Below are positions 13,005 to 60,451 of a DNA stretch of 61,894 nucleotides, piece after piece. The position numbers and the translations under genes were made by a program. Each line of letters opens with the position of its first letter. Position 1 is the stretch's first letter. Under the pieces are notes generated by a model, which saw nothing but the letters and a program-made list of their open reading frames with translations, was not told where the DNA came from and ran no database searches. Source of the DNA: a virus (Duplodnaviria > Caudoviricetes); the IMG/VR virus record IMGVR_UViG_3300044568_000567, positions 1 through 61,894 of that record, one strand, 5' to 3'.

Positions 13005-15890
13005 TTAATTGCTGAAATCAACGAATTCATAACTTTCTATTCCAGTATGTTTTTTAGTGAATTCAAACTTTTCTGGTTTCGGTTCGGTCATCGTTGCAAC
13101 AACTCCACCCCGTTGCCTCATTAAATAGACTAGCAGGGACAGGGAATCGAGTGCGTCAGGACTATTTTGGCGAGTCCGTTTTACGAAGTCTCCCTTGCTC
13201 TCGACTCTCACCAACCCCTGCCCCTGCTGTTTGTACCGCCGCGAAGTCGCTTGACGAACTAACTCCTCGGTACGGAAGCTCGGTGAAATTTTTAAATACT
13301 CAAACTCCAGATATTTTGCAAGCCCGAAAATCAGTTCTGTAACAACTCCTGAATACAATTCGTTTGCGCGTTGTGTGTCATCTCCCAAGATATGGGTTTC
13401 TGAACTAGCCCATGAATAATTGACTCCCATGACTTCGCTTCCGTAGAGTGACTTCAACGCATCGTGGATTCCTGCTCCGTTTCCAGTTCGGTCAACACAT
13501 AGCCAATTCGCGCCGATCCTCATCTCCTTTGCAAAGCGGATGATCTCTGCGGTCTGCTCTAGTGTTGCCAATTTCGGGAACTGCATTTGCGAGTCTAATT
13601 GCAAACACGTCTTTGGTTTTTTGAATTCACGGAATTGTCCATCCCTCGGAGTCCAGCCATCACAGAGTCCGTATCGACCAAATGAACAAACAACTTGATC
13701 TCGGCCTTCCAATGCCAAATCGAACGCCGCTAGAGGCACTACAGGGCCAATAAACCGCAAGCTACCCATTGAGTTGTCCATCATTGCTGGGGTTATGATT
13801 GCCATCGATATGCCTTCCTGCGGGAAGAATCCACGGGCCATTGTGTAGTATTCGGCAGTCCTACCTTTACTTTCGTATGCCATGTATCCCTCGTAGGATT
13901 GGAAGCCGGGGAACACGATCTCCTTGTTGGTTACATTCTCGCACCTTGCTGCATCGAGCCTCAAGATATGCCAACCCTCCCTGCTATCCCACTCGAAATC
14001 CTCCTCGCAATCCACACTCTGCCAACCCCGCGAAGGTTCGCACCTCTTACCGAATTCACTATTCCGATCTTTCGGGTTAGACGCTCCGAAAATCTTGATG
14101 CGTCCCTTGGAATCTTTTGTGTCCGCAGCGGACAAGATGTTCTGTAAACCTTCCCAAACACCAGCGGGAACCTCCTCTGCTTCGTCTAGTACAACGTGCG
14201 TCCTACTCATCTGACCCCACTTGGGATCTGGCTTTTGCCTTGGGGAAGGGTGGAACCCGCGCAAAGTACCAGTTCCGCTATCACCTTTGGGAACAGCAAC
14301 TAGATGGATCCCATTTTTGTCATCGTCATTGGCTTGAATTGACTTTACCAAGTCCTCGCTACCTTCGTACTCTGGACGTACCAATGCGGTGCGGTAGAAA
14401 TTTTTAATCGCAGCGAATACGTTTCTCTGCGCGTGTGCCTCGGTAAGCGAAACCACTTTAATACAAGTGTACTCTGGATCTCGCATCCAATCCAACAAGA
14501 ACCACGCGGCAGCATTGAACGTGTTGTGAGTTATTGTAAAATCTGAAAGTAAAAATCTCTTGTCTCCATCCAATACAAATCCATAATATTCACCATCACC
14601 AACTGGAGTAATGTTTATTTTTTTCCCAATAAAAACTTTAACTTTTCTTGCATCACATTTTTTTAACCTGCATGGGATAACAGAACAATCTCCACTGATG
14701 TGTCCTCTGTAATAAGTTCCCCAAACCCCATTATTGACGCAACGCTTTCTGCATTCTTTGACTGTCACATCCAAACCAAGACTTCTGGCAATAAACGCAA
14801 TTGACACTGCAACTTCTTTGTTTTTTTGAATATATCCATACCCCGGCCCTGCCGCATACCCATCTGTATCGATAAAACCAGCAAGAACATTTAAACGAAC
14901 GCTTCTTGAATTTAATTTATAACATTCAGGAATCATTTTTTCATTATCTCTTATCGCAAACGACATTACTTTTTTTATCGTTCCTGCTCCCTTAACGTAA
15001 TAAACGCTTGATTTGTTATTCTTTTGTTCTGTTTTTACAATTTGACATCCCTTTTCTTCCCAGTATTGAATCCACGCATCTCTTATGACATCATCCATTG
15101 TGGTAAGTCCAAGTCTTCCACCCTTTCCATTCCCGTCACCTAACCACAATCCAAAAACATAAGCATCCATTGGAATCACTTGTTCATTAAAATGAACTCC
15201 AGTTGAAAATCCTTTGTATAAACTTTTGAATTGTTTGGATGATTTAAGATATTCTTGCAACCCAATATCAATCACCTTTCCCATTGTATATGTGCTTGAT
15301 ATCGTTTTCCCATCCCCATTCTTTTTGTTTTCAGTGCAAATAAGAGTTAAAATGTGATCGTCTGTAACAGTATATGACTCTCCACGCTCTTGATCTATTC
15401 GATACATTGGAGAAATTCCGCTATGCAAATCAACTACATTTCTTGGATTGCTATCTGGCCCCATTACCTTGTCTCCGATTTTTACATCTTCAACACTTTT
15501 CAATGTACCATCTGACATTATAACTTGCGTTCCTTTTAAAAGGCACTTCCCCATCGCTCCAGCACCCTGTACTAATAGTTTGTCATTCTCAAACAAACAC
15601 CTCCAAGTATCCGCTGCACTCTGTGGCCTCCAGTCATAAACTCCAGATCCCCAAAGAATCGTTGCCGCTGCCTCAAATTGGTCGTGTTTGAGCAGGTGTT
15701 GAACAAAGTTTAGCACAGTCTGCCTAGCCACCTTTTCGTCCAGTGTAACCTGCTTTTTCTGCGAATTCGTCAGATTTGTCAGTATAAACTGAGCGGCATA
15801 GATGACTCCATTGATATCATCCTTCTCCGCTTCCGCTCGCACCCTTGTAGCAATGTTAATTGCCTGTAAAACTGATGGGGGTTTATTCAT
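13005..15890 (-). CDS. terL: Terminase large subunit with intein (about 620 aa spliced)
   Basis: Walker A GAGAMGK|T split by the intein, Walker B VVLDEAE, nuclease AFDLA...VDRTGNG...SPDALDS. Confidence 0.93.
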   Translation of the reverse strand: MNKPPSVLQAINIATRVRAEAEKDDINGVIYAAQFILTNLTNSQKKQVTLDEKVARQTVLNFVQHLLKHDQFEAAATILWGSGVYDWRPQSAADTWRCLFENDKLLVQGAGAMGKCLLKGTQVIMSDGTLKSVEDVKIGDKVMGPDSNPRNVVDLHSGISPMYRIDQERGESYTVTDDHILTLICTENKKNGDGKTISSTYTMGKVIDIGLQEYLKSSKQFKSLYKGFSTGVHFNEQVIPMDAYVFGLWLGDGNGKGGRLGLTTMDDVIRDAWIQYWEEKGCQIVKTEQKNNKSSVYYVKGAGTIKKVMSFAIRDNEKMIPECYKLNSRSVRLNVLAGFIDTDGYAAGPGYGYIQKNKEVAVSIAFIARSLGLDVTVKECRKRCVNNGVWGTYYRGHISGDCSVIPCRLKKCDARKVKVFIGKKINITPVGDGEYYGFVLDGDKRFLLSDFTITHNTFNAAAWFLLDWMRDPEYTCIKVVSLTEAHAQRNVFAAIKNFYRTALVRPEYEGSEDLVKSIQANDDDKNGIHLVAVPKGDSGTGTLRGFHPSPRQKPDPKWGQMSRTHVVLDEAEEVPAGVWEGLQNILSAADTKDSKGRIKIFGASNPKDRNSEFGKRCEPSRGWQSVDCEEDFEWDSREGWHILRLDAARCENVTNKEIVFPGFQSYEGYMAYESKGRTAEYYTMARGFFPQEGISMAIITPAMMDNSMGSLRFIGPVVPLAAFDLALEGRDQVVCSFGRYGLCDGWTPRDGQFREFKKPKTCLQLDSQMQFPKLATLEQTAEIIRFAKEMRIGANWLCVDRTGNGAGIHDALKSLYGSEVMGVNYSWASSETHILGDDTQRANELYSGVVTELIFGLAKYLEFEYLKISPSFRTEELVRQATSRRYKQQGQGLVRVESKGDFVKRTRQNSPDALDSLSLLVYLMRQRGGVVATMTEPKPEKFEFTKKHTGIESYEFVDFSN
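14523..15545 (-). mobile_element. Intein (341 aa) with LAGLIDADG homing endonuclease
   Basis: Starts CLLKGTQVIMSDG, block B VTDDHIL, FGLWLGDG and LAGFIDTDG motifs, ends THN before +1 Thr. Confidence 0.95.
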
Positions 15891-16958: not shown

Positions 16959-17176
16959 TTCATTCCAAAGATACTCTTTAATGCATCCACTCCAGTGCTG
17001 GTGCTATGATATGATCTTGGTTCGTCTTTGCCTTCTTCTTCCCCGTCATACATTGCAACATCCCAAGTCGTATCGAATAGCTTACGAAGTCCTTTCGCAG
17101 ACATGGTTACGTTTCCACGTCCGTTGAACGATGGGTTCTTATTGATGTACACTTTCCAGAGTTCTTCTTTTGTCAT
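16955..17176 (-). CDS. Hypothetical protein
   Basis: ATGA coupling at both ends. Confidence 0.65.
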   Translation of the reverse strand: MTKEELWKVYINKNPSFNGRGNVTMSAKGLRKLFDTTWDVAMYDGEEEGKDEPRSYHSTSTGVDALKSIFGMK

Positions 17177-17562
17177 ACGTTTATCAGTGCAATGTTGAAT
17201 TCCGCTGCAAGCATGGTGGTAGATTCATCCGTTGGGTAAGTCTCACGATAGACTATCCTTTTGATCCCATATGATGCAAGCGATTTCAAGCAGTTGTTAC
17301 ATGGCAATGTTGTTGATGCAAGTAGGTAACACTCCAATGGTTTAACGTGGCGCAATGCGTTCTGCTCTGCATGGACAACGTAATTCCTACGTTTTTCCCT
17401 ACAACTCCAGTCTTCCTCCATGTGCGGTGGAAATCCGTTGTACCCACAAGCCGCAACAGTGTTGTCATGCCGCAACAACACAGCACCAACCTGCCTCCAA
17501 GGGTCTTTGCTCTTCTTGGCAACCACTTCCGCTATCGACAATGCATATTCATCCCAGTTCAT
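17173..17562 (-). CDS. dCMP deaminase
   Basis: SKDP..QVGAV, GYNGFP, HAEQNAL, PCNNC. Confidence 0.92.
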   Translation of the reverse strand: MNWDEYALSIAEVVAKKSKDPWRQVGAVLLRHDNTVAACGYNGFPPHMEEDWSCREKRRNYVVHAEQNALRHVKPLECYLLASTTLPCNNCLKSLASYGIKRIVYRETYPTDESTTMLAAEFNIALINV

Positions 17563-17575
17563 ATTTATTTATTAT

Positions 17576-17607
17576 TCACCGCATTATTACCGCATTATTC
17601 ACCGCAT
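17576..17607 (-). repeat. Three tandem ATG-CGG-stop units
   Basis: ATGCGGTGA ATA ATGCGGTAA TA ATGCGGTGA. Confidence 0.8.
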
Positions 17608-17890
17608 ATTCATTCCAATGAAGTCAAGACCTGTTTATCTCACCCATGTGGTCTTCCAACCAGTAGACTGCTTGACCAGAGTCTCTTACCTCGTCTGGAA
17701 AGATACACTCGTCAGATATGATTCCGTTGAGTTGCAGTGCGTTCATTACCTTGGTTGCGTTAAGTCTTTTGTATTCGATGTAGTGTTCCAGAGTGTTCAC
17801 TCGTCAAACCCTTTCATGCCATCGTATACAACATACAGTATAATAGCTGCTAATACGATATAGCCGATAATATATCCCATATATGACACC

Positions 17891-18355
17891 TTATTGGCAG
17901 GACTCGCACTCTGGATCTTCGATGTGACAAGTGCGCTCCACTTTGATATCTGCCAAGTCATCATCGTCCTTTAGCACAACTGGTTCGTCAGCAACCTCCA
18001 GCTTGTCTGCACGGGCGATTGCCGCTGCGTTGCTGTACTGGTGCTGCGGATACCTCTTCGACAACTTCGCTACATTAGCCTCCATGCACTCGTTAATCGT
18101 CAAGCCTAACTCGTTCAACAGACCAGTCAGGTAGAACAGGATGTCTCCTGCTTCTTCAATCACGTTGTTGATGTCTAATTGCTTCTGGTAGACGCAGTGT
18201 TTCTTTACTGTGTCAAGCAGCTCACCCGCTTCGCCGCTGACTCCCACTGCCATGTGGAGGATGGAGGCTTGAAGAGGTGTTAGCTGGACAAGGATGTCAT
18301 GCCCCGGCTTAACGATTGATTGAACGAATTGTTCGTATGGTGTAGTTAATTTCAT
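17891..18355 (-). CDS. MazG-like NTP pyrophosphohydrolase
   Basis: GVSGEAGELLDTVKK...EEAGDILFY...NVAKLSKRYP. Confidence 0.9.
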   Translation of the reverse strand: MKLTTPYEQFVQSIVKPGHDILVQLTPLQASILHMAVGVSGEAGELLDTVKKHCVYQKQLDINNVIEEAGDILFYLTGLLNELGLTINECMEANVAKLSKRYPQHQYSNAAAIARADKLEVADEPVVLKDDDDLADIKVERTCHIEDPECESCQ

Positions 18356-18906
18356 TTTGTATGTATGTTAAAGTATGCCAAGCCGAAACAACCTGATTCA
18401 GCTAGGTGGACTAACTTTCCATCACTACCTATGCTCTCGTCAAGTATCTTTTTAGTTATCATCTGAGGATGCCCATCATGTGGTTCAATGTCAACCCATT
18501 CAAAGATGCGAAGAACCTTTGCCGCTCGTAGTGCGTTGGCAATGATTAGTGCAGGGTCATCTGTATGCTGCAAGCAATTGTAAATCCAACACTCATCGAA
18601 CCCCTCTTCTACCACGTCCTCACCTCGCATCACCAGACACTCAACACCATGCTCATGGTAGCGAGCGTAAGTCCACTGCGGATACTGGAGCGGATCCACT
18701 ACCAATGCCCTGCCAAGTCCTTTTGCCTTTAACAGCATGGACGTTGGGCCACCACCTATGTCGATCACTGACTTGCCTGACAGACTGAATCCGTAGCCAA
18801 CCTGATGCAGTCCCATGAATCTCGCATAGACATAGTGCTTCTGGTCTTCATCGAACGTGTTGCAGCAGTCTCCCCAGTAATCCGATTCAAACGTGTAGTC
18901 ACTCAT
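18352..18906 (-). CDS. Class I SAM-dependent methyltransferase
   Basis: VIDIGGGP, VVDP, FDECWIYNCLQHTDDP; likely start at 18906. Confidence 0.8.
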   Translation of the reverse strand: MSDYTFESDYWGDCCNTFDEDQKHYVYARFMGLHQVGYGFSLSGKSVIDIGGGPTSMLLKAKGLGRALVVDPLQYPQWTYARYHEHGVECLVMRGEDVVEEGFDECWIYNCLQHTDDPALIIANALRAAKVLRIFEWVDIEPHDGHPQMITKKILDESIGSDGKLVHLAESGCFGLAYFNIHTK

Positions 18907-19055
18907 TTCAGTTCCTCCTTCAGTTTCCTGTAGTGTGCAACTGCTTGGGGCCACTGGTCATGCCAACCTGATGACGCTACTAGTCGATCCGCGCAGTCCT
19001 TCCATCTGTCACGCTCCTTGGTTATCTTGTCTATCTCTTCTGTTGTATCGTTCAT
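18903..19055 (-). CDS. 50-aa hypothetical protein (not in ORF track)
   Basis: MNDTTEEIDK...LKEELK; ATGA overlap with the methyltransferase. Confidence 0.6.
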   Translation of the reverse strand: MNDTTEEIDKITKERDRWKDCADRLVASSGWHDQWPQAVAHYRKLKEELK

Positions 19056-19066
19056 ATTGTTTTTGT

Positions 19067-19098
19067 TTGTGACAAATAGTGGGTAGTATTTGTCACAA
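19067..19098. repeat. Perfect 12-8-12 inverted repeat
   Basis: TTGTGACAAATA-gtgggtag-TATTTGTCACAA. Confidence 0.85.
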
Positions 19099-20238
19099 GG
19101 TTTGTTGTTGATTAGATGGGTAAGTCATTGTCATTGCATCGATTCCGTTGCCATCAGCGTACCAACCTGCTCCGTTGTACACGTCTAGCACGTCTTGGAA
19201 GTACTTCTCGTACCGAGGTGCAACTCGTTCAAGCGTAAAGTTCTCACCAAACGCACGGCAGTCCGCTGGTCTGATCTTGTCGATGTTGTTGATTGCGTCC
19301 ACGTAGTCACCCATCGTGCGGCATCGATACCCAGTGACCCCATGTAAGTTGTTCTCTGCAAATGATCCCCAGTCAGACGTGATGGTTGGTGTTCCGCTCA
19401 ATAGGTTTTCAATCTGTACTCCACCGAATGGCTCGACGTACTGGCTAGGCAGGAATGATGCCTTGGCTTTAGACATCAGTTCCTTGCGCTTAGGAACGTC
19501 AGCATAGCCCGCATACTCGACATGGGGTGGAAATGTATACCCTGCCTCGCATTGACCCGCTACAACCAGTTTCACTCCTGCTCTGCGCGTTGCATCGATG
19601 GCGATATCAACACCCTTGCCGCTATACACCCGGCCAAGGTACAGGAAGTAATCCTCCTTCTTGTCATTGAAGTCGAAATCATCGATGTCAAAGTAGTTAG
19701 GTATCACAACGGAATAGTTATCTTGCTGGCACTGACCTACTGCACCCATGCCGCAGTGAGCGTGATAGATGGCATATGACTCCCAAACCTTCCATTTAGC
19801 CCAGTGACCCCCCGCGTACCCTATCCCCGGCTCAACTACGATCATATCATGTTGGTGTGCATCACATATCGGTCTGACTCCAGACCCCCAAAATGGAAGA
19901 ATAAAGTCGTTCTTTTCCTTTCGAAAACCTACCTCCCGAATGGCATTGGCATAGAACGTCTGGTATGCGTGATCGCTTGTGTTGAACTTGAAGAACGTCT
20001 TGCGCCAGTCATGGCTACCATAACTCTTAGCAAAGTCATCATTGGTCAGGACGCTGACGTGTTCGGTACATTGAAGGTCGCTGTCCTCATGGCCATAATG
20101 GATGACTTCATGGCCTCTGTCTGTCATCATTTTGCCGAATTTGACTACCTTCTGCGTGTAGGCACAGGCATTAAACTCTTTAGATGTAACTGTGTGTGGA
20201 AGCCCCAGTGCATGGAATCTCATTTTTTCTGTTTTCAT
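19093..20238 (-). CDS. Glycosyltransferase family 4 (GT-B)
   Basis: LYLGRVYSGKG, PSQYVEPFGGVQIENLLSGTPTI. Confidence 0.9.
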   Translation of the reverse strand: MKTEKMRFHALGLPHTVTSKEFNACAYTQKVVKFGKMMTDRGHEVIHYGHEDSDLQCTEHVSVLTNDDFAKSYGSHDWRKTFFKFNTSDHAYQTFYANAIREVGFRKEKNDFILPFWGSGVRPICDAHQHDMIVVEPGIGYAGGHWAKWKVWESYAIYHAHCGMGAVGQCQQDNYSVVIPNYFDIDDFDFNDKKEDYFLYLGRVYSGKGVDIAIDATRRAGVKLVVAGQCEAGYTFPPHVEYAGYADVPKRKELMSKAKASFLPSQYVEPFGGVQIENLLSGTPTITSDWGSFAENNLHGVTGYRCRTMGDYVDAINNIDKIRPADCRAFGENFTLERVAPRYEKYFQDVLDVYNGAGWYADGNGIDAMTMTYPSNQQQTL

Positions 20239-20415
20239 TATGTACTACAGGTGTTATTGGAAGTTATTGGTTGTTTTCCTTGTTCTTCAGCTTGTTGATC
20301 AAGGACTTCTGCTTATTTACGTCATGTTGCAAATCGTGGATGATTTGCCGCAATTCTTTAATATACTGCTTTTGTTGCTGAATTATACGCATCTCTGGTG
20401 TTATCTCATGCGCTT

Positions 20416-20625
20416 TCATAGGTTCTCTAGGATCTCGGTTAGTTTCGCTTTCATGTTGTTGACTTGTTTCAAACTGTAATAGTCTTGTGCGCTCACTTCG
20501 TATGTTGAGTACCTGTGGAGGCACTTCTGGTTATCGCAGTATCTACGTCTCGAAAATCGATTGCCGAAGTCTCTACATTCCATAACGTGTGTCGTAGAAC
20601 TGCATTTGGGGCATAATTTGACCAT
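20416..20625 (-). CDS. NrdR-like zinc-ribbon protein lacking the ATP-cone
   Basis: CPKC..THVMECR...SRRRYC...C.HRYSTYE parallels NrdR CPxC..TxVxDSR..RRRRxC..C..RFTTxE. Confidence 0.75.
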   Translation of the reverse strand: MVKLCPKCSSTTHVMECRDFGNRFSRRRYCDNQKCLHRYSTYEVSAQDYYSLKQVNNMKAKLTEILENL

Positions 20626-20635
20626 TTATGATTTA

Positions 20636-20682
20636 ACCCTAGATATGGGGTATTTGAAATATGTTGCCACTATATGGTGATT
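20636..20682. promoter_or_regulatory. Tandem NrdR-box-like sites
   Basis: ACCCTAGATATGGGGT (20636) and CCACTATATGGTGATT (20667), 31 bp apart; consensus acaCwAtATaTwGtgt. Confidence 0.65.
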
Positions 20683-20735
20683 ATTATCGACAACATCAGT
20701 GTTTTTGTGGTTAAAATACATTAGCTCATCGTACG

Positions 20736-21224
20736 CTATGCTGAGTTTGATTCCCCGCTCGCTTCGATTCGCATTTGCTTCTCCTCTGGTTCCCTGCCCT
20801 CGATTAGCTCAATAGGTTCAGCGTTGCGATCACCAATGGTGAATGTGACGTTGAGTGGCTTTGCTTGTGTCGATTCGATTTCGATTTTATCGCCGTACTG
20901 ACGTGCGTTCCATTTACCTAGTAAGCGGATACGAGTGTCAATTCTGACCCTCTTCTCCTGAGCATCGAGCATTGGATCATCAGCTATTCTTATGCAGTCA
21001 TCAGCGATTGCGTGAGTGCCTATTTTTCGTGAGAGATGAGATTTATTGCGGAATTCTTCGTTTGAGCATTCCCAACGCCATACTGTTGAGTAGTTTGGCA
21101 TACCTTCGAGATTGCAGATAGATGAGAGTGTTTGACCCATTGCGAGTCTCTCGCAGATTTCATCTCCGAGAGCTTCGTCGTACTTGGGAGGAGTGCCTAC
21201 TTTTCGTGCTGGTTTAAAGCTCAT
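20736..21224 (-). CDS. terS: Terminase small subunit (Sf6-like)
   Basis: EICERLAMGQTLSSIC...MPNYSTVWRW...RVRIDTRIRLLGKWNARQYGDK. Confidence 0.88.
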   Translation of the reverse strand: MSFKPARKVGTPPKYDEALGDEICERLAMGQTLSSICNLEGMPNYSTVWRWECSNEEFRNKSHLSRKIGTHAIADDCIRIADDPMLDAQEKRVRIDTRIRLLGKWNARQYGDKIEIESTQAKPLNVTFTIGDRNAEPIELIEGREPEEKQMRIEASGESNSA

Positions 21225-21582
21225 ATGGTTGCTTGGGTTTAGGTTTACGCTTGGGTAATCCTGACTTCAGTTCGTTGCTCTGCTTGAGTTTTGACTTTGA
21301 CTTGGTTGAACGTGATTTCGACGCTTTCGGGGTTATCGTCTGGGATGAGTTTGGAGTATCTAATTTGGTCAATGAGAGGTTTGCTTCCTCCAGCAAGATT
21401 GTCAACGTCGAGTGTTTTTGTGGAGTAGCGTGTAATTGCGAGAGTGTAGAGCGGATTGCACTTAGCAGTGCAGTCCTTGCTAGGTTCTTTTGCTTTGTGT
21501 ACTTTGACCAATGGCAATTTAGGAGCGTGTTGAGTGAGGGTGTCAAGTAGCCTTCTAGATGGAGGTTTATAGTTGTCTGCAT
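21214..21582 (-). CDS. Overlapping ORF encoding a RusA-like N-terminal half
   Basis: LTPSLNTLLNCHWSKYTKQK motif; the remainder is low-complexity. Confidence 0.55.
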   Translation of the reverse strand: MQTTINLHLEGYLTPSLNTLLNCHWSKYTKQKNLARTALLSAIRSTLSQLHATPQKHSTLTILLEEANLSLTKLDTPNSSQTITPKASKSRSTKSKSKLKQSNELKSGLPKRKPKPKQPYEL

Positions 21583-21649
21583 AGTAGTAGTGTCCGTCTG
21601 GTGCGAGGGAGTAGCCTTTCTCTTTGAGTTGTTCAGTTGTCCAGTTCAT
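21245..21649 (-). CDS. rusA: RusA-like Holliday junction resolvase, catalytic C-terminal half
   Basis: ITRYSTKTLDVDNLAGGSKPLIDQI...IPDD; ATGA-coupled start. Confidence 0.75.
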   Translation of the reverse strand: MNWTTEQLKEKGYSLAPDGHYYYADNYKPPSRRLLDTLTQHAPKLPLVKVHKAKEPSKDCTAKCNPLYTLAITRYSTKTLDVDNLAGGSKPLIDQIRYSKLIPDDNPESVEITFNQVKVKTQAEQRTEVRITQA

Positions 21650-21876
21650 AGCATACCGATTCTAGAGTATTTACCACGAAGCAATCTTTCTGCGGTCTTG
21701 GTTTGTTGTCTCGCGCTTTCAGGGCTTTTGTTAATGAGTTTGCTAACTTGGTTGAATGACCTGTGGTTTCCATCATTAAGTCCATAATAAAGCGTTAGTG
21801 CCGTTTTTAGTTTCTCTGGCAATTGGTTTATAAACGAATCCAGTTGTTCAAACTTTTCTTCTTCAATCAAGTTCAT
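21646..21876 (-). CDS. Stand-alone sigma70 region-4-like HTH protein
   Basis: LPEKLKTALTLYYGL...SFNQVSKLINKSPESARQ...AERLLR. Confidence 0.75.
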   Translation of the reverse strand: MNLIEEEKFEQLDSFINQLPEKLKTALTLYYGLNDGNHRSFNQVSKLINKSPESARQQTKTAERLLRGKYSRIGML

Positions 21877-22069
21877 TGTTCGAATAAGTAATCTTCTGGG
21901 TTGGGATCCTGTTGTGCTTCGATTGTTTTGCCGCAGGTGTTGCACTTGCAGTTGCCGTGATCATCGACGCTCATGACGTTGTCGCAGCACTCTGGTACTT
22001 CGTCTTGTTCGGGTGGGTCATTCCAGTAGTCGTTCATAGCGGGTATAGTTGTACATGGTTGTGTGGGAT

Positions 22070-22384
22070 TTATACCTTATCTAGATCAATCAAACTTTTT
22101 GCTCGTATTCCTGCTTTTATGATTTGGTTGTGTGCATCATCAACGATGGTTGATGGGAGCAAAATCTCTTTCAGATCCTTGTATTTTGTTCTTACGAAGA
22201 TTTCATCCGTTTCAATTTCCCCGTCTTTTATGCTGGTTGTCAGTTGGAATCGTTTGGGAAGCTCATAGAGTTTAGCGGACAATGGATTGGCTTCCATGTC
22301 GAGATTCCAGAATAGATCAATCATGGTGTTTGCTTGGAGTATTGATATTGTGCCATCTGGCCATTTTGCTAGGTATGTTTTCAT
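22070..22384 (-). CDS. Hypothetical protein
   Basis: ATGA coupling. Confidence 0.6.
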   Translation of the reverse strand: MKTYLAKWPDGTISILQANTMIDLFWNLDMEANPLSAKLYELPKRFQLTTSIKDGEIETDEIFVRTKYKDLKEILLPSTIVDDAHNQIIKAGIRAKSLIDLDKV

Positions 22385-22857
22385 TTGATTGGTAGTGTTT
22401 CGATTGGGTTGAGTGCTGATTGCGGTACAAAGTAGCAGTCTGGATCTCCCTGTATGAAGTACTCTGGTTTCTTGCCATGCTCAGGATTGATCCATCCCCG
22501 CAGGGTTGCTTGTAGTCCATTGATTGTTACGAACACAAAAATGTAATCGTTGTTTGAGGAATCGTACAGCACAAGATGTCCGTTTGCGTGTTCCGTGGTA
22601 CGAACCTCAAGTGATGCACCTATGTCTGCTGCTTTGGTTATTTGAAGTGTGGACATCTGTGTTAGTCCCGTGAATTTTGACACGGCAATCTCCCCCAGTT
22701 CACCGAGGATGCTATCTGCCAATCGTTGGGTCATCTTGCGGTAGGACTTGCCACCATGATCGTGTCCCATGCGCTTGTTCTTAATGGCAACCAACTGGCG
22801 CACTGCGCCTTTAGTTGCGGCTACCATGAAGTCCTCTGCGGTTAAGTCGATGATCAT
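22381..22857 (-). CDS. Putative PD-(D/E)XK-fold protein
   Basis: GELGEIAV...ADIG...EVRTT...YFVPQSAL. Confidence 0.55.
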   Translation of the reverse strand: MIIDLTAEDFMVAATKGAVRQLVAIKNKRMGHDHGGKSYRKMTQRLADSILGELGEIAVSKFTGLTQMSTLQITKAADIGASLEVRTTEHANGHLVLYDSSNNDYIFVFVTINGLQATLRGWINPEHGKKPEYFIQGDPDCYFVPQSALNPIETLPIK

Positions 22858-23135
22858 CGTGATTGCTGAATGAATTTGAGTGCGATTGCCATTAGCTCAG
22901 GGTAGTCGCGCAGTGACTCTAGGTAGGATTGGAACATATCATCGATAGCTTGTTCAGCGAACGGGTCAGGAATGATCTCAGCTTTGACCTGTGCGTCCTC
23001 CAATTCCTTGTTGGCTGCCCTTAGTGCAAAGATAGCAGCGGAGCAGAATACGGACAACTGTGCGGCAATGGATCGGTAGTCCTTGTTGCATTCCTTCAGA
23101 CGTTCAACTTCGGAGGTGTATAGTGTTTCGCTCAT
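22854..23135 (-). CDS. Hypothetical protein
   Basis: Coupled at both ends. Confidence 0.6.
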   Translation of the reverse strand: MSETLYTSEVERLKECNKDYRSIAAQLSVFCSAAIFALRAANKELEDAQVKAEIIPDPFAEQAIDDMFQSYLESLRDYPELMAIALKFIQQSR

Positions 23136-23136
23136 A

Positions 23137-23751
23137 TTAATATTTATAGAATGGATTTAGTGGGTTTGGTTTACTGACTTTATTATCACTGGAAGCATTC
23201 CTTATGAATTCCACATAGTATTCTTTAGCGCACTTTAGTGCCTCATCACGTTCAAGCTCTGCTCTTGCTGCCATGTCAATAGCGCATTTCCATTTGTTCT
23301 CCCAACCAACGATAGCATCCCTAGCCTCATCCCGCTCGCGTAAAGCTACGGAAAGCGGAGTTCCGCAAGCGTGATTGGTTGCTCCCTCTAAATAGCGTAT
23401 GCGTTCGGTTTGCCTAAGATTTGTCTCCTTCAATACCCTTTTGTATGCCTTTGATTTTTGTGCATCAATTCTAGCCTCATCGCGTTCTTGGCAGAATCTT
23501 TCTGCCCTGCATTCAGCCTGAACAATCTGAGATAAAGCATCGTCACGTTCTAACTCCAACCTAGCCAACTCACTTGTGGAGTGTAACTCCAATGCGGTTA
23601 GCCTGTCAGCCAGCTGCTTGGCATCCTTTCGCAACTTGTATACCTCAACAGGTGTCCAGTCAGCACCTTCGCAACCGCACTCGTTTGCGCTAGTGGCATA
23701 GCAAGTGCAACCCTGACCCTCGTAGTAATCTGATGTTATAATTTCGTGCAT
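23137..23751 (-). CDS. Coiled-coil protein with ERDEAR repeats
   Basis: Four ERD(D/E)A repeats. Confidence 0.65.
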   Translation of the reverse strand: MHEIITSDYYEGQGCTCYATSANECGCEGADWTPVEVYKLRKDAKQLADRLTALELHSTSELARLELERDDALSQIVQAECRAERFCQERDEARIDAQKSKAYKRVLKETNLRQTERIRYLEGATNHACGTPLSVALRERDEARDAIVGWENKWKCAIDMAARAELERDEALKCAKEYYVEFIRNASSDNKVSKPNPLNPFYKY

Positions 23752-23763
23752 ATATTTATAAAA

Positions 23764-23915
23764 TGGGGTGTGAGGTTTTATGTAGTTGCCTCACAGGGTC
23801 AAATGATAACCAGCCCACATGGTGGCCGCTACATTCCCTTAAAATTGGTCAGCGTTTTTTCGGATGCGCTGCCCCCGTTGTCCCCTGCTGATCGGGAGTT
23901 CCCAACCTAGCGAGG
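23764..23915 (-). ncRNA. Two tandem candidate structured RNAs ending in CCA
   Basis: Non-coding gap with units of 70 and 75 nt, each ending stem+CCA; not canonical tRNAs. Confidence 0.3.
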
Positions 23916-23925
23916 AAAGTGTTAG

Positions 23926-24219
23926 TTAAAACGGAATGTCATCTCCATCGTTATCCTTGGCCCGTGCTGGAGCAGATTTGGCCTTTGTAGTGGTTTTGTC
24001 TCCAACCTGTACATTCTTAGCGTTTCCAAGAATTGGAAGCTGCACACCATTCTCGCGATCTTCTTTTGAGATCGATTGTTTTACCATGTAGTCACCATAA
24101 TCTGACTGAGATTCAATCAGGATGAGATCACAGAATAGTGCCTTATCACCATTTTTGCGGGTGATTGCCTTGAATCGTGTCTTGTCTAGTTTTGTTACGT
24201 CGATACTTAGTGTTATCAT
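23926..24219 (-). CDS. Single-stranded DNA-binding protein-like
   Basis: LSIDVTKLDK...LPILGN...; acidic DDIPF C-terminus. Confidence 0.7.
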   Translation of the reverse strand: MITLSIDVTKLDKTRFKAITRKNGDKALFCDLILIESQSDYGDYMVKQSISKEDRENGVQLPILGNAKNVQVGDKTTTKAKSAPARAKDNDGDDIPF

Positions 24220-24298
24220 ATTTTATTTACTTTTATGCGGCTTTTAATGGTTGCCGCTTACCAAGTCTGCATTAGTTTGCAGAAAGTGTAATGTTATG

Positions 24299-24526
24299 CT
24301 AGTCGCTCCAGCAATCGTAGCTTCCTTCGTAAACATATCCATTTTCGTTCCTCGTTTCATTGAACGTGAACGATTGCCCAAACATATCGTGAGACCCGCA
24401 AAGTGACTCAATGATTTCTTTGGACAGATAGGACTTGGAAGTGATGCGGAACTTTCCCCAGTCCCGGGTGCCGCTGGCATTGCGAGACTTATCTGCCTCG
24501 ACTGTGATTACGTTGAGAGTTTTCAT
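24299..24526 (-). CDS. Hypothetical protein
   Basis: Likely start MKTLNV at 24526, just after the upstream stop. Confidence 0.5.
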   Translation of the reverse strand: MKTLNVITVEADKSRNASGTRDWGKFRITSKSYLSKEIIESLCGSHDMFGQSFTFNETRNENGYVYEGSYDCWSD

Positions 24527-24527
24527 T

Positions 24528-24731
24528 TCAATAGTAGTTGAACGTGTTGCCTCCGTAAACCTGATTGGGATTTCTACGGCTCCACTCGTCATGGAAATGC
24601 TGTGCGTCAGAGTCGCTACGCTCGGACTTGTTAGCGAAGTATTGCTCTGGGTCTTGGTGTTTGCGGTTAACCCGTGGAGATTCGTCATCATCCTGCGGGT
24701 CGAAGTCTGGTAGTGTTTTCATGTGGATCAA
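24528..24731 (-). CDS. Hypothetical protein
   Basis: ATGA coupling. Confidence 0.5.
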   Translation of the reverse strand: MIHMKTLPDFDPQDDDESPRVNRKHQDPEQYFANKSERSDSDAQHFHDEWSRRNPNQVYGGNTFNYY

Positions 24732-24982
24732 ATAATAAACCCCTTACGAGTGAAGAATTTTCCAATCGGGGAACTCCACTCGTCGGAAAGAGAGCAACGA
24801 ATGTGACTCACAAAATCGTTTCCTTCGCTCTCTGCGGTCTGACGATTGCATTCGATGTAATTCCAGACCTCAATTTTGCCAAGTCCAGTTTGGAACCACT
24901 TGCTTTTTTGAGAATCACTTGCTTTCAAATCTTGATCATAAATAGCGTTCAAGATTTCGAGTTGGGTTTTTTTTGCTTTCAT
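24728..24982 (-). CDS. Hypothetical protein
   Basis: Likely start MKAKK at 24982. Confidence 0.5.
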   Translation of the reverse strand: MKAKKTQLEILNAIYDQDLKASDSQKSKWFQTGLGKIEVWNYIECNRQTAESEGNDFVSHIRCSLSDEWSSPIGKFFTRKGFII

Positions 24983-25026
24983 TTGATATGGTGTATTTAT
25001 TGGACTGACTCCACTACATCTAGGGT
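24979..25026. promoter_or_regulatory. NrdR-box-like site with a weaker partner
   Basis: CCACTACATCTAGGGT at 25011; half-match ACACCATATCAAATGA (reverse strand) 32 bp away. Confidence 0.55.
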
Positions 25027-25220
25027 TAAAACTCAAACTCGTCAACAGAATTTTCTTCGATGTGCGCAAAATATTTATTGTAGATTTCTTTTGCCTTTTC
25101 GTATTTTTCCTGAGCGTCCGCAAACCTAGATTTCATGCGGGTCTGCCAGATTGCTGTTGCAGTGTCTAGCAGAAAGCAAGCCTCGTCGAAGTGGTGATTA
25201 GTGTTCATCGATTTGTTCAA
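25026..25220 (-). CDS. Hypothetical protein
   Basis: Overlaps the end of dnaB. Confidence 0.5.
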   Translation of the reverse strand: MNKSMNTNHHFDEACFLLDTATAIWQTRMKSRFADAQEKYEKAKEIYNKYFAHIEENSVDEFEF

Positions 25221-26493
25221 ATCTAGAAATTTCTCCGCGCATTTTTACAGGCACAAACACGTCACGTTGACCACGCCGATTCTTGTCGATGCGTACACGC
25301 GAAGTTGATTGGGTTTCTGTTTTGCGTTTAAATGATGACGCTTCTTTTTTCTTCTCGTCTGGATGCGAGATGATGAGCAAAAAATCAGTGTGGTGACCGA
25401 TTGCGCGGGACTCTCGTACTGCACCTTCGTCGTTGAGTTGTGATGCAGTCATCACCACGGATTTTGTTTTGAGAGCAGTTAGTTTGAGTCTTCGCGATAG
25501 TTCACTCACTGCCTGTTCTCGGTTATCTGCGGTTGGCATGGTGACAATTTGTAGGTAGTCAACGATGATCAGATCGGCCTTGCCAAGTGATGCAAGACGG
25601 GATGCCTCTGCGACGATTTCTCCAACCTCGGAGAGATCATCGCGGATCGTGAGGTTCATTCCCATGAGTTGGGTGATTGCGCTTGAGATATCCTTTGCAG
25701 ATGCAACCCCTCTCCACTCTGTGACCCCTTCCATCTCACGCAATGGCAGTATTGTCTTACCCAGAAGATTGGAAGCTATACGTTGTAGAATAGCCTTAGC
25801 TGGCATCTCTAGAGAAAATATAGTTACTGATTTACCATTCAGCAGTGCCTGAAGTGCTGCCTGATAAAGCAAGATAGATTTGCCTCCGCTGGTCTGCGCT
25901 CCTACCACTAGCATCTCACCCCTCCTTGCACCTCCACCAAGCAACTTGTCCAGCTTGGGAATTCCAGTTGGGTAGTTCTCTAGTGGAGTCTTGTCCTCCA
26001 GATCATCCAAAAAGTCGTTTAGATGGGCCTTCACGTCCTTGCATTGGCTCTCTGGTACGATTGCATTAGCGAATGACTCAGCGAGGCTAGAAAGGTCTGC
26101 CTTCATCGCGCAAATATCGTCATGGTTATCCTCCCACGTCCTTATTGCATCACGATACCCTTTTGCTTTGATGAGTTGTGCGCGGTAGTCCGCTGCGGTT
26201 TCAACGCACATAGCACCGGGGGACAGGAAGATTGTCTGGAGTACATCCATAACTCCATCCTTCCCTCCGCAAGCATTCAACTTGCCAGTTGTCTCAAGGT
26301 CACTCAATGCCCCTAGTGCGTTTGTGGATCCAGTCCGCTGGTAGACTCTCTCCAGTGCGGTGAAGATGAGTTTATGTTGTGATAACGCAAACAGATCTTC
26401 TGACCATGCGAGGTGCGGTAGAACCTCTGGGTCGATTGCGATAAGCGATAGTGCCGCTTTTTCTGCGGTGATTGCGATTGGTGTATTTTTCAT
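25198..26493 (-). CDS. dnaB: Replicative DnaB-like helicase
   Basis: PTGIPKLD, GAQTSGGKS, FSLEM, IIVDYLQ, SQLN, DKNRRG. Confidence 0.95.
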   Translation of the reverse strand: MKNTPIAITAEKAALSLIAIDPEVLPHLAWSEDLFALSQHKLIFTALERVYQRTGSTNALGALSDLETTGKLNACGGKDGVMDVLQTIFLSPGAMCVETAADYRAQLIKAKGYRDAIRTWEDNHDDICAMKADLSSLAESFANAIVPESQCKDVKAHLNDFLDDLEDKTPLENYPTGIPKLDKLLGGGARRGEMLVVGAQTSGGKSILLYQAALQALLNGKSVTIFSLEMPAKAILQRIASNLLGKTILPLREMEGVTEWRGVASAKDISSAITQLMGMNLTIRDDLSEVGEIVAEASRLASLGKADLIIVDYLQIVTMPTADNREQAVSELSRRLKLTALKTKSVVMTASQLNDEGAVRESRAIGHHTDFLLIISHPDEKKKEASSFKRKTETQSTSRVRIDKNRRGQRDVFVPVKMRGEISRFEQIDEH

Positions 26494-28913: not shown

Positions 28914-29965
28914 AGTTTTGCTTTCTTTGGTTTGTCCTCAACTAGCTTCACAATTTCCTCTGCAACGTCAGGTTGGATTTGGGTGAGATCGTATCCCACT
29001 GCCTCGCAGTACTTCTGCAATTTTGTAGCAGAGATGCTACCTCCGAATAGCTTAATGCTGTCGGATAATGACATTTCGGTGCAATTTCCGATATGTTCGA
29101 TAACCTCCGCAGGGTATGTCTCACGTCCTTTCTGGCGTTGCAGTTTCCATCCATAAACCTTCTCCCCTGCTTGCAGTTTTTGCTTCAGCAGATCTTTTGC
29201 CCAATCGACAAGGTAGTTGTTGAAAATATTGCTCTGTTTTATAAACATTGAGAGTCGATCCACATCACCTGCGAGATGCTCCTGCATTTGCGCTAGGTTG
29301 GTCTGTAGGTCGCTTTCCACAACCGCTAGGGTGGTGGCAACTGGAACTGCAATCTGACCGCACGTTGATGCCTTCTTACACCACTTGCAATAATCGCAAG
29401 CGGACGGGGTTTTGTCTGGGTCGTTGTATGCTGAAAGAACACCCTCGACAACCTGCTTGGCCTCGTCAATTGTCCAGCTATGCGTCACCACACGCTCTTG
29501 ATCACAGAACAGCAGGTGCGTAGTCCATTCGCGAATAGCGTATTCGCCAGTCTCGAAATCGTAGCTTGCTGCCATGTTGCCGTAGGCATAGGCACACTGC
29601 TGCTCGGCGTACGAACGTAGGATTCCTGATTTTAGGTCTAGGCTAGTATGTATAGCAGGGATTCGGCAATCCTCGGTTCCAATGTGATCGATCCCCGGCG
29701 TTTTAACCTTGAGACTATCTTCGTCGGTTACCACCTCATGGTCACCAGCGATTGTCTTGGTCATCTCGACTGCCCACATGACCGCATCTCCATCCTTGGG
29801 ATTCAGATCAAGAAAAGGTTTATTGTTCCCCATGAACATCTCACGGAACGCAAGATCCATGTGAGTCCCGCGAGATGCGGCATAAGATTGACCTTCCTTA
29901 GACTCGAAGCAAGCACACTCAGCCAGCTTTGGAAGTAGTGAATGCCTGATCATTTGGCCTCCCAT
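28910..29965 (-). CDS. PD-(D/E)XK Cas4-like exonuclease (DUF2800-like)
   Basis: RGTHMD, GTED, DLKSG, QCAYA, CDYCKWC...C. Confidence 0.82.
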   Translation of the reverse strand: MGGQMIRHSLLPKLAECACFESKEGQSYAASRGTHMDLAFREMFMGNNKPFLDLNPKDGDAVMWAVEMTKTIAGDHEVVTDEDSLKVKTPGIDHIGTEDCRIPAIHTSLDLKSGILRSYAEQQCAYAYGNMAASYDFETGEYAIREWTTHLLFCDQERVVTHSWTIDEAKQVVEGVLSAYNDPDKTPSACDYCKWCKKASTCGQIAVPVATTLAVVESDLQTNLAQMQEHLAGDVDRLSMFIKQSNIFNNYLVDWAKDLLKQKLQAGEKVYGWKLQRQKGRETYPAEVIEHIGNCTEMSLSDSIKLFGGSISATKLQKYCEAVGYDLTQIQPDVAEEIVKLVEDKPKKAKL

Positions 29966-30609
29966 TTTGCAACTGCTGCGAGAAACTTCTCTGGTGATAC
30001 GATAAGGTTGTCACGATACTTGCCAGCGGGAAGATCATTCCACAACTGACCAACTTTGATCTCACCTTTGCTGATCAGATATGCTGTAGCCGATTCAGCT
30101 TTGGTTGCGATTACTGCCTCTACCTTTGTGAACCAGTTTGGATCTTCTTTGGGTGTTACGGGTGATAGTACTTTTGTGACTGTTGTCCTAGCTTGCGGAA
30201 CGCTAGTGGAGCGTCCCATTGCCATCTCGCCATCGTCATCCAAATCGTCAGAACATACCATTACAAGCGATTGCAAGGCATACCTGCGAGCATAACTGAT
30301 TAAAGACCCGATTCCCTGCGGATCTTCCTTCACTGGTTTCATGTATAGACGTGATTTAATCCACTGACCGCTTGAATGGATTAGCATGGATTCAACGTAG
30401 TATCCGCTTTCGTCGTGTGATGGAAGCTGAACCACAGAAAGTCCGTTTGCGGTTAGTGCTGGTCGTACTGTTTCCCAAACCTGCGCCAATGAAGCGTAGT
30501 TGGATTTGAAGAATGGGTTCTTTGCGTCCTTGTGAACTGTTCCGTTCTCTGCCTGTGCTTTTGATAAAGCGATTGCTAGGTCTGCTATGTTTTCTGATTG
30601 TGTGTTCAT
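29950..30609 (-). CDS. erf: ERF family single-strand annealing protein
   Basis: KNPFFKSNYASL, HSSGQW, PQGIGSLISYARRYAL, DDDG. Confidence 0.93.
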   Translation of the reverse strand: MNTQSENIADLAIALSKAQAENGTVHKDAKNPFFKSNYASLAQVWETVRPALTANGLSVVQLPSHDESGYYVESMLIHSSGQWIKSRLYMKPVKEDPQGIGSLISYARRYALQSLVMVCSDDLDDDGEMAMGRSTSVPQARTTVTKVLSPVTPKEDPNWFTKVEAVIATKAESATAYLISKGEIKVGQLWNDLPAGKYRDNLIVSPEKFLAAVAKWEAK

Positions 30610-59769: not shown

Positions 59770-60451
59770 CCCAACACCAAGCCTGACACCAACTGAACGT
59801 GCTTCTCCTGTTTTTAGCGTATTCTAACGCCCCTCTAGCGGTTAATGTTCCGATATTATAGCAAGTGCCACCATGATATGTTCTGGCATTTTGGATAGCA
59901 ACACGATGGGTGTGTCCCATTACTATTTTACGCCTTGTCCCATTGCAATATTGCTCTGCCATGTCCCTAGCTGCAGATTCACCATAGCAAGTTCCATGAG
60001 TAAAACCAATGTCCGCTATGTCAACGATCTGTTCAATTCCAGAATAAGGAATTAATCTAGCTTTTAGCTTTTTAGTTGTATCTTCGATTGCAGACACAAT
60101 TTTGTGAGCGCAATATGAAGTGACAGAATTTTTGCTGTGAGTCAATTTCCAAGCACGATCTTCATGGTTTCCACAAAGAACATAAGGGTTCTTGCATCCA
60201 GCCATTAATTCACGAAGATGCATTAAACCTGTGTCAATATCTGGAGTTACTTCATCTCCATCACTTCCAGAACCGATTCCATTACCCATCAAGGCTGATA
60301 AATCAATAAAATCTCCAAGATGCAGGATTGTATCAGGTGAAAAGCGCGATTTGAACTTCATTACGGCATTCCAAGCCTCTTTGTCGCAATATTTTGCATG
60401 ACTGCACGAAACTGCTAGGACTTTTTTCCACTTGTGCGTGATATTTGCCAT
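59687..60451 (-). CDS. Calcineurin-like metallophosphoesterase
   Basis: SCSH (in place of DxH), HLGDFID, GNHE, THG, GHTHR. Confidence 0.88.
   Translation of the reverse strand: MANITHKWKKVLAVSCSHAKYCDKEAWNAVMKFKSRFSPDTILHLGDFIDLSALMGNGIGSGSDGDEVTPDIDTGLMHLRELMAGCKNPYVLCGNHEDRAWKLTHSKNSVTSYCAHKIVSAIEDTTKKLKARLIPYSGIEQIVDIADIGFTHGTCYGESAARDMAEQYCNGTRRKIVMGHTHRVAIQNARTYHGGTCYNIGTLTARGALEYAKNRRSTFSWCQAWCWGEYCESLNQSSLQITQRGRGEAWRMPI

Follow-up and report, generated by a model that had tools for sequence, protein, structure and literature searches.

The virus record IMGVR_UViG_3300044568_000567 (Duplodnaviria; Caudoviricetes), all 61,894 bp of which make up the window analyzed here, carries on its minus strand (20416..20625) a gene for a protein of 69 amino acids (aa) that is composed of a four-cysteine zinc ribbon (residues 5-43) followed by a C-terminal helix (residues 46-68), and that has no ATP-cone. 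The protein is referred to below as mini-NrdR. NrdR is the near-universal repressor of bacterial ribonucleotide reductase (RNR) genes, and the mechanism by which nucleotides switch its oligomeric state through the ATP-cone has been solved only recently. Between the mini-NrdR ATG and the stop codon of a gene resembling the small terminase gene of Sf6 (20736..21224, minus strand; PF20901, E 1.4e-29) there is a gap of 110 nucleotides (nt), which harbors a tandem pair of NrdR-type boxes (site 1). A second tandem pair (site 2) is located about 4.3 kb upstream of site 1, at the head of the preceding operon and about 170 nt past the stop codon of a DnaB-like helicase gene (25198..26493, minus strand; phrog_19, E 4e-61), which belongs to an operon ending just upstream of site 2.

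From these findings we proposed that mini-NrdR is a sensor-less repressor of the NrdR type with operators of its own, pairs of the protein occupying the boxes and repressing both operons. We put the probability of this reading at roughly 0.5.

The zinc ribbon protein

The first-pass annotation of the window, made by a model from the sequence alone, had described a zinc ribbon of the NrdR type, 69 aa long and without an ATP-cone. Profile, family and fold searches bore this out. PF22811 (Zn_ribbon_NrdR) matched residues 5-43 of mini-NrdR (E 1.1e-5, 25.7 bits), and a precomputed match to PF22811 is on record for 19 of its 21 close homologues. The ATP-cone itself (PF03477) was found nowhere in the genome, of which mini-NrdR is the sole NrdR-type gene. 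TIGR00244, the NrdR equivalog, matched with E 2e-4 and 21.4 bits, far below its cut-off of 124.65, because two thirds of this model describe the absent ATP-cone. Mini-NrdR is therefore not a member of the NrdR equivalog, whose defining sensor it lacks. With the single mini-NrdR sequence as query, neither pairwise BLASTP with E. coli NrdR nor phmmer with the PDB sequences gave a match, but the profile of its family (87 sequences) matched five NrdR structure sequences with E values from 6.9e-14 to 1.9e-10, the next match being RPB9 (1.7e-3).

The AlphaFold2 model of mini-NrdR (mean predicted local distance difference test score 95.6) folds into three strands and one helix (residues 46-68). When it was compared with the PDB by Foldseek, the ten top matches were all NrdR chains, with a root-mean-square deviation of 0.8-2.0 Å over 44-48 columns and 33-36% identity; the E values are only about 1e-2 because the domain is small.

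In NrdR from S. coelicolor D15 and R17 read bases, and R12, R26-29 and R37 contact the phosphate backbone (excerpt of PMC9110341). In NrdR from E. coli R27, R29 and E42 maintain the constitutive pairing of the ribbons, and two such pairs are joined by the ATP-cones into the DNA-binding tetramer (excerpt of PMC12176259). Alignment of mini-NrdR with E. coli NrdR showed that the four cysteines are kept, that R17, R27-R29, R37 and E42 reappear as R18, R26-R28, R38 and E43, and that D15 is replaced conservatively by E16. By profile, fold and alignment mini-NrdR thus appears to be a paralogue of the NrdR DNA-binding domain that lacks the sensor and consists of a zinc ribbon and a single amphipathic helix, and it is predicted both to work like the DNA-binding half of NrdR and to descend from it. 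That mini-NrdR itself is switched by dATP plus ATP is unlikely, as it has no sensor domain. A complex prediction with four copies of mini-NrdR and zinc scored 0.06, to be compared with a mark of 0.42, and is evidence neither way.

The gene is real and conserved. Mini-NrdR was found at 54 viral loci; its 21 homologues with 80-96% identity are every one 69 aa long, and no longer form was found among the homologues. The median ratio of non-synonymous to synonymous substitutions (dN/dS) is 0.083 (103 pairs; mean dS 0.78), which means that mini-NrdR is under strong purifying selection.

More distant relatives are numerous. When 1.84 billion representatives were searched exhaustively with HMMER, 104 clusters came up at E up to 1e-3, with proteins of 60-131 aa in nearly all cases; four clusters are longer (163, 169, 238 and 807 aa), and two of these contain repeated ribbons. 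Among the metagenomic tandem-ribbon proteins, P0023 (807 aa), P0038 (163 aa) and P0101 (238 aa) have 8, 3 and 2 matched stretches, respectively. All 87 members of the family that were used for the profile match PF22811 at E up to 1e-3, and 25 of the 87 also match Ogr_Delta (best E 9.1e-9). Two PHROGs, both without an assigned function, were matched by most members, phrog_36879 by 81/87 and phrog_10675 by 69/87. The nearest Atlas clusters hold proteins of 72-94 aa, of which 90-100% have PF22811 and 75-100% are viral; one neighboring cluster carries a name of the Ogr/Delta type. Automatic pipelines label the stand-alone ribbons "NrdR family". The loci recovered by a scan with P0022 all belonged to the same clade as the window.

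The two tandem sites

Candidate boxes were scored on two scales. On the first, matches were counted to the strict 16-bp NrdR box consensus that Rodionov and Gelfand are said to have given in 2005, for pairs of boxes 31-32 bp apart (maximum 32). On the second, a bit matrix was used that was built from six E. coli NrdR boxes and thus from one species; these boxes were placed by matching the DNA to the text of the paper (15-bp spacers, central AG in nrdAB box 2).

Site 1 consists of two boxes, each 16 bp long, which are 31 bp apart from start to start and separated by a 15-bp spacer. The proximal box (20636..20651; minus-strand reading ACCCCATATCTAGGGT) ends 10 nt before the ATG (20625), agrees with the consensus at 12 of 16 positions, scores 12.0 bits with the E. 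coli matrix and fits the published regular expression for the core of the NrdR box. The distal box (20667..20682; minus-strand reading AATCACCATATAGTGG in its best-scoring register) agrees at 11 of 16 positions and scores 8.6 bits. The two boxes directly upstream of the ATG, of this length and distance, had been noticed in the first-pass annotation, and they lie where it had put them.

The boxes of site 2, which that annotation had missed, are separated by 16 bp. The proximal one (24979..24994; minus-strand reading ACACCATATCAAATGA) overlaps the ATG (24982) of the first open reading frame (ORF) behind the site (24728..24982, minus strand; 84 aa), which matched no family and occupies a slot that differs among the relatives. 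The distal one (25011..25026; minus-strand reading ACCCTAGATGTAGTGG) scores 15.7 bits with the E. coli matrix and is the best single box; the 11 bp of its core (ACTACATCTAG) are the same as in the downstream box of E. coli nrdHIEF. The second tandem site strengthens the case for sites of the NrdR type, as judged from sequence.

Neither site is at the background level, which the annotation had named as the result that would speak against its claim. By consensus scoring the two top pairs of the genome are exactly sites 1 and 2, with 23/32 each. The number of pairs with this score expected per simulated genome was 0.046 (first-order) or 0.023 (third-order), and two or more such pairs occurred in 1/1000 first-order and 0/1000 third-order genomes. 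For comparison, the three operator pairs of E. coli, all 31 bp apart, reach 24, 24 and 26 by this count. The E. coli matrix gave 20.6 bits for site 1 and 18.5 bits for site 2, the next site in the genome being at 12.7. In 300 simulated genomes the maximum averaged 11.5 bits (95th percentile 15.6); it reached 18.5 bits in 1% of them, and the second-best site never did (0/300). When one operon at a time was left out of the matrix, the E. coli pairs scored 21.6-27.4 bits and the phage sites, on the same matrices, 16.4-21.0 bits. Going by score, the phage sites are level with, or slightly below, the lowest of the E. coli sites for which binding has been measured. A third and weaker tandem pair, 31 bp apart (60092-60138; 11 + 11 of 32), is found inside a coding region and recurs in 2 of 4 related genomes; it is within chance, with 0.18-0.27 sites of that score expected per genome.

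The geometry of the sites is canonical. Spacers of 15 and 16 bp are optimal for four NrdRs, and in the nrdDG operon of L. monocytogenes the ATG follows 13 bp after box 2 (excerpt of PMC12051234). In the phage the proximal boxes end 10 nt before one start codon and lie across another, a position that would suit a block of expression rather than an activator. Sites 1 and 2 have the half-site ACCCTAGAT in common, in opposite orientations, and the 11-mer ACCCTAGATRT is found without a mismatch at these two sites only in the whole genome. The inversion is more easily reconciled with a symmetric dimer than with a promoter element, which has a direction.

The sites are also conserved among relatives, which are close kin and whose agreement therefore does not count as independent. 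Four related genomes, complete or nearly so, each have the homologues of sites 1 and 2 as their two top pairs, with scores of 23-24. Site 2 is kept in 4/5 related records, the fifth being 67% complete, and the proximal box of site 2 shows in the relatives one change from C to A, toward the consensus. Homology among the relatives breaks exactly at this box (24974-24995), behind which five phages have three kinds of first gene. Here a mosaic joint coincides with a regulatory site.

At site 1, for which 36 distinct upstream sequences were available out of 54, the pairwise diversity is 0.063 in the distal box and 0.097 in the proximal box, 0.207 in the spacer between them and 0.224 in the leader; it is 0.114 in the remaining upstream region of mini-NrdR. 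The boxes are thus 2-4 times less diverse than the adjoining spacer and leader. At two box positions the only variants are swaps of A and T where the consensus has W, and at several others one of the variants matches the consensus. A sister clade, in which the protein is 39% identical and the neighbors are the same, has a strong box that reads CCACAATATATTGGGG or CCACAACATATTGTGG and lies 9 nt ahead of the ATG; its distal partner is weaker, and the pair scores 20-22 at 31 bp.

Candidate binders of the boxes

If mini-NrdR is the repressor, pairs of its ribbon would sit on the boxes of sites 1 and 2 and would hold down both operons, including its own (autoregulation), and they would do so without needing a nucleotide signal. 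The dATP/ATP-loaded NrdR of the host would use the same sites and thereby couple both operons to the state of the host's deoxynucleoside triphosphates (dNTPs). Host NrdR probably can use the sites, because the three-turn spacing of the ATP-cone-linked tetramer is kept and because the scores are like those of E. coli sites. That both proteins bind is a tentative proposal, to which we give somewhat less than even odds.

Several observations weigh against repression by mini-NrdR. On the side of the protein, NrdR requires the ATP-cones, which link two ribbon pairs, for high affinity, and mini-NrdR has in their place only its C-terminal helix. In mini-NrdR S replaces R26, H stands at position 12, where E. 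coli NrdR has K and S. coelicolor NrdR has R, and the second zinc knuckle reads Cx4C where NrdR has CxxC; the Pfam score of the protein is below the PF22811 gathering cut-off of 27.2 bits. On the side of the DNA, a search of the genome with the strict consensus, allowing up to 3 mismatches, gave 0 matches with 1.0 expected. The published regular expression is at background genome-wide (237 positions vs 232 expected; 86 near-pairs vs 80 expected) and is too loose for a whole genome; Shahid et al. used it for regions upstream of RNR genes (excerpt of PMC12051234). The distal box of site 1 is weak and one position off this expression, and its register is ambiguous, the best internal palindrome (CACCATATAGTG, 12 bp, 20668-20679) being centered at a distance of 30 bp from the proximal partner. 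At site 2 the proximal box has only 2.8 bits with the E. coli matrix. The whole 110-bp spacer upstream of mini-NrdR is fairly conserved, with other blocks equal to the boxes, whose placement ranked 14th of 64 by entropy.

Transcription adds two further points of this kind. A sigma-70-like promoter was predicted at neither site 1 nor site 2, and contigs of relatives from RNA libraries cover 17000-21700 and bridge the site 1 spacer. These contigs give neither starts nor strands, may derive from DNA carry-over, and cover parts of 21700-25300 only a little. If they represent RNA, some transcription reads through site 1 from upstream.

A last point against it comes from the family at large. With an alignment of 14 family sequences 61 diverse viral loci were found (ORFs as called: 44 of less than 100 aa and 6 of at least 140 aa). 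The best tandem pair within 130 nt upstream of these genes averages 15.8, as compared with 15.7 in 1667 control windows from the same loci, and a pair of 21 or more was present at 1/61 loci, upstream of a 162-aa form of full-length size. Since the upstream boxes are at background in these loci, the combination of gene and boxes is a trait of the clade and not of the family. The co-occurrence across phages that the first-pass annotation had suggested looking for is therefore confined to this clade and, more weakly, its sister clade. Three viral contigs (L151, L154 and L125) have genes for longer proteins that resemble NrdR (162, 148 and 114 aa as called), with upstream pairs of 23, 19 and 19; these genes may be phage-borne or carried-over full NrdRs with self-operators.

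The alternative that survives best leaves the sensing to the host. The boxes would mainly be read by the dATP/ATP-loaded NrdR of the host, so that both phage operons would be off until replication of the phage drains dATP, and mini-NrdR would antagonize host NrdR: either a mixed ribbon pair with one ATP-cone could not form the two-box tetramer, or mini-NrdR would compete for the boxes. The nrd genes of the host would then be derepressed together with the phage operons, which would replace an RNR of the phage. The phage sites have the 15- and 16-bp spacers that mark a tetramer linked by ATP-cones, yet mini-NrdR has no ATP-cone; the sites score near the low end of real E. coli pairs; the residues of the ribbon-pair interface are kept; and the upstream boxes are not general to the protein family. 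Of the genes that make dNTPs, neither an RNR of class I/II (PF02867) or class III (PF13597), as had been supposed for this phage from the start, nor ThyA or ThyX is present in the complete genome; the phage is therefore dependent on the host for dNTP synthesis. That a phage protein can contact NrdR is known from phage Cp-1, for which a two-hybrid screen in yeast showed that orf6 binds the NrdR of pneumococcus (excerpt of PMC4840434).

RNR was likewise found in 0/31 viral records with such genes, 22 of which are at least 90% complete; these records are not independent of each other, and the count carries little weight. RNR is encoded by 128 of 685 phages overall, mostly large myoviruses (excerpt of PMC3653736), and 0/31 is not clearly below the baseline for phages of 30-100 kb. 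That the host has an NrdR is presumed; a scan of genome contigs with the mini-NrdR protein found no relative. The heterodimers are a supposition, and the residues that contact DNA are kept in mini-NrdR, although they would be superfluous in a pure protein decoy. We consider it unlikely that host NrdR is the main reader and mini-NrdR its antagonist. The same holds, to the same degree, for the broader notion of a viral take-over of the host's dNTP thermostat, in which host NrdR would govern two phage operons and a ribbon without ATP-cone would poison or displace it and so derepress host RNR. If that notion were true, the stand-alone ribbons of phages (phrog_36879, phrog_10675) would be a widespread class of anti-NrdR factors.

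A private element is improbable. In that case AT-centered palindromic promoter or regulatory sequences would mimic NrdR boxes, and the ribbon would act elsewhere or not on DNA. The equally conserved other blocks of the site 1 spacer would be explained, as would the flanks shared by the two sites (AAATAC before the proximal and TAGTGG in the distal boxes), which are at similar distances, as in a two-part promoter; the phage also has a sigma-region-4-like gene (21646-21945; match below cut-off). However, two independent NrdR scorings pick exactly sites 1 and 2 in five genomes, the shared half-site is inverted between them, the motif occurs only twice and not at other operon heads, and one of the sites directly precedes the only NrdR-type gene of the genome.

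Ogr proteins are phage-borne, about 70 aa long and have a Cx4C second knuckle, and the dyad TGT-N12-ACA lies upstream of the promoters activated by Ogr/Delta. An activator of this type, for which the boxes would be sites of middle or late operons without any link to NrdR, had been named in the first-pass annotation as the competing identity and is, in spite of the Ogr_Delta matches within the family, the Atlas cluster so named and a match of mini-NrdR itself to the Ogr-like NF007241 (E 0.016; 15.6 bits, cut-off 116), the least probable reading of all: mini-NrdR has no match to Ogr_Delta (PF04606) at E up to 0.1 and scores higher with NrdR models, the solved structures found by profile and fold are NrdRs, the dyad is absent from 20626-20735 and 24995-25197 (14 in the genome vs 20.9 expected), and proximal boxes so close to or across a start codon leave no room for a downstream promoter.

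Surroundings and comparison with known systems

The operon behind site 1 has no large gaps and extends to a large helicase gene. It begins with mini-NrdR, a 51-aa ORF, a glycosyltransferase, a phrog_3603 protein, MazG, two small ORFs and a dCMP deaminase, which are followed by more genes. The helical 51-aa ORF (20264..20419, minus strand) matched no family. Its ATG overlaps the stop codon of mini-NrdR (ATGA), and all 15 loci that were checked, 13 from this clade and 2 from the sister clade, have the overlap; the protein may be a partner of the mini-NrdR helix. The group-1 glycosyltransferase (19093..20238, minus strand; PF00534, E 1e-15) and the phrog_3603 protein (18352..18954, minus strand; E 3.8e-80; Methyltransf_11 at E 0.013, below cut-off) come next.

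Co-oriented MazG and dCMP deaminase genes downstream, the former with an RNR-like tail, had been reported in the first-pass annotation. The two genes are there, as a MazG-like pyrophosphatase (17891..18355, minus strand; PF03819, E 6.2e-9; phrog_229) and a dCMP deaminase (17173..17562, minus strand; PF00383, E 3.9e-18). The tail is an acidic stretch within the last ~35 residues of MazG, followed by a CxxC one residue from the end (...DDDDL..KVER.C..DPECESCQ), and is kept in 30/30 complete relatives, the sister clade included. It resembles, by eye only, the redox-shuttle tails of E. coli NrdA (…DDGCESGACKI) and NrdE (…EGCVSCAL), and could be a mimic for docking to thioredoxin or RNR.

The record is complete and bounded by direct terminal repeats. 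The genome has a G+C content of 40-46%, nearly all its long ORFs are on the minus strand, and it contains neither tRNA genes nor a tyrosine integrase. The sequencing runs containing the stretch are labeled lake water or freshwater metagenomes. In a collection of cultured phages no relative was found by DNA, nor by tblastn with mini-NrdR or two family members. In Pfam searches 20 further ORFs, from the region and the rest of the genome, yielded nothing beyond ERF, PATR repeats and a weak match to PAPS reductase, and Rfam gave no match in 20300-25300.

Some further genes are worth recording. A 3162-aa ORF (34024-43512, minus strand), which had no PHROG match at E up to 1e-5, encodes a giant virion protein or enzyme. 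A 961-aa protein (13005-15890, minus strand) is mostly labeled large terminase by PHROGs; tblastn matched it, over residues about 100-526 only, to genes of Salmonella and Vibrio phages annotated as DNA helicases, some of them containing inteins. A clear large terminase was not identified in the genome. The small-terminase-like gene upstream of mini-NrdR stands amid recombination and replication genes (20736-21224 and 29950-30609), namely a weak RusA-like match, ERF and DnaB.

Short ribbons of the NrdR type are common in phages and have no functional annotation. A natural NrdR without a sensor, together with canonical two-box operators, raises the question of whether a zinc ribbon alone can repress, and the second question of whether viruses use or sabotage the NrdR regulon. 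The clade is a directly testable case, with two defined sites of 47-48 bp and a protein of 69 aa, and assays for E. coli NrdR are already established. If the link to the host is true, it would be a new route to dNTPs for phages without RNR, and mini-NrdR a new kind of auxiliary regulatory gene. Among the matches listed in a full-text literature search, which did not cover subscription journals, there was no description of a stand-alone phage NrdR ribbon or of NrdR boxes in a phage genome; matches to nrdR orthologues are listed for gut phages in a table row (excerpt of PMC10294663).

Cp-1 orf6 is a precedent in that a phage protein may target NrdR; the contact is between proteins, and the excerpt of PMC4840434 reports no phage boxes. 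With Ogr of phage P2 and Delta of P4 mini-NrdR shares the small size, the four cysteines, the phage origin and the property, predicted for mini-NrdR, of binding DNA, and the Pfam families overlap; mini-NrdR differs in that it scores for NrdR models and in that the positions of the boxes suit repression, not activation. The protein belongs to the stand-alone ribbons of phages (PF22811 only, 60-120 aa). At the base-reading positions most of these have D-S-R, whereas this clade has E-C-R, and in this clade the gene is accompanied by two NrdR-type operators, which were not seen at the 61 diverse loci of the family.

Mini-NrdR has the same zinc-ribbon fold as bacterial NrdR and has kept most of its residues for DNA contact and for pairing. 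The phage boxes resemble NrdR targets in being paired palindromes of 16 bp, with spacers of 15-16 bp, at or just before the start of an operon. In contrast to bacterial NrdR, mini-NrdR is encoded by a virus and has in place of the ATP-cone a C-terminal helix of 23 residues, which would not sense dATP or ATP. The operons regulated by bacterial NrdR encode RNR; those behind the phage boxes contain genes of other kinds, among them MazG and dCMP deaminase.

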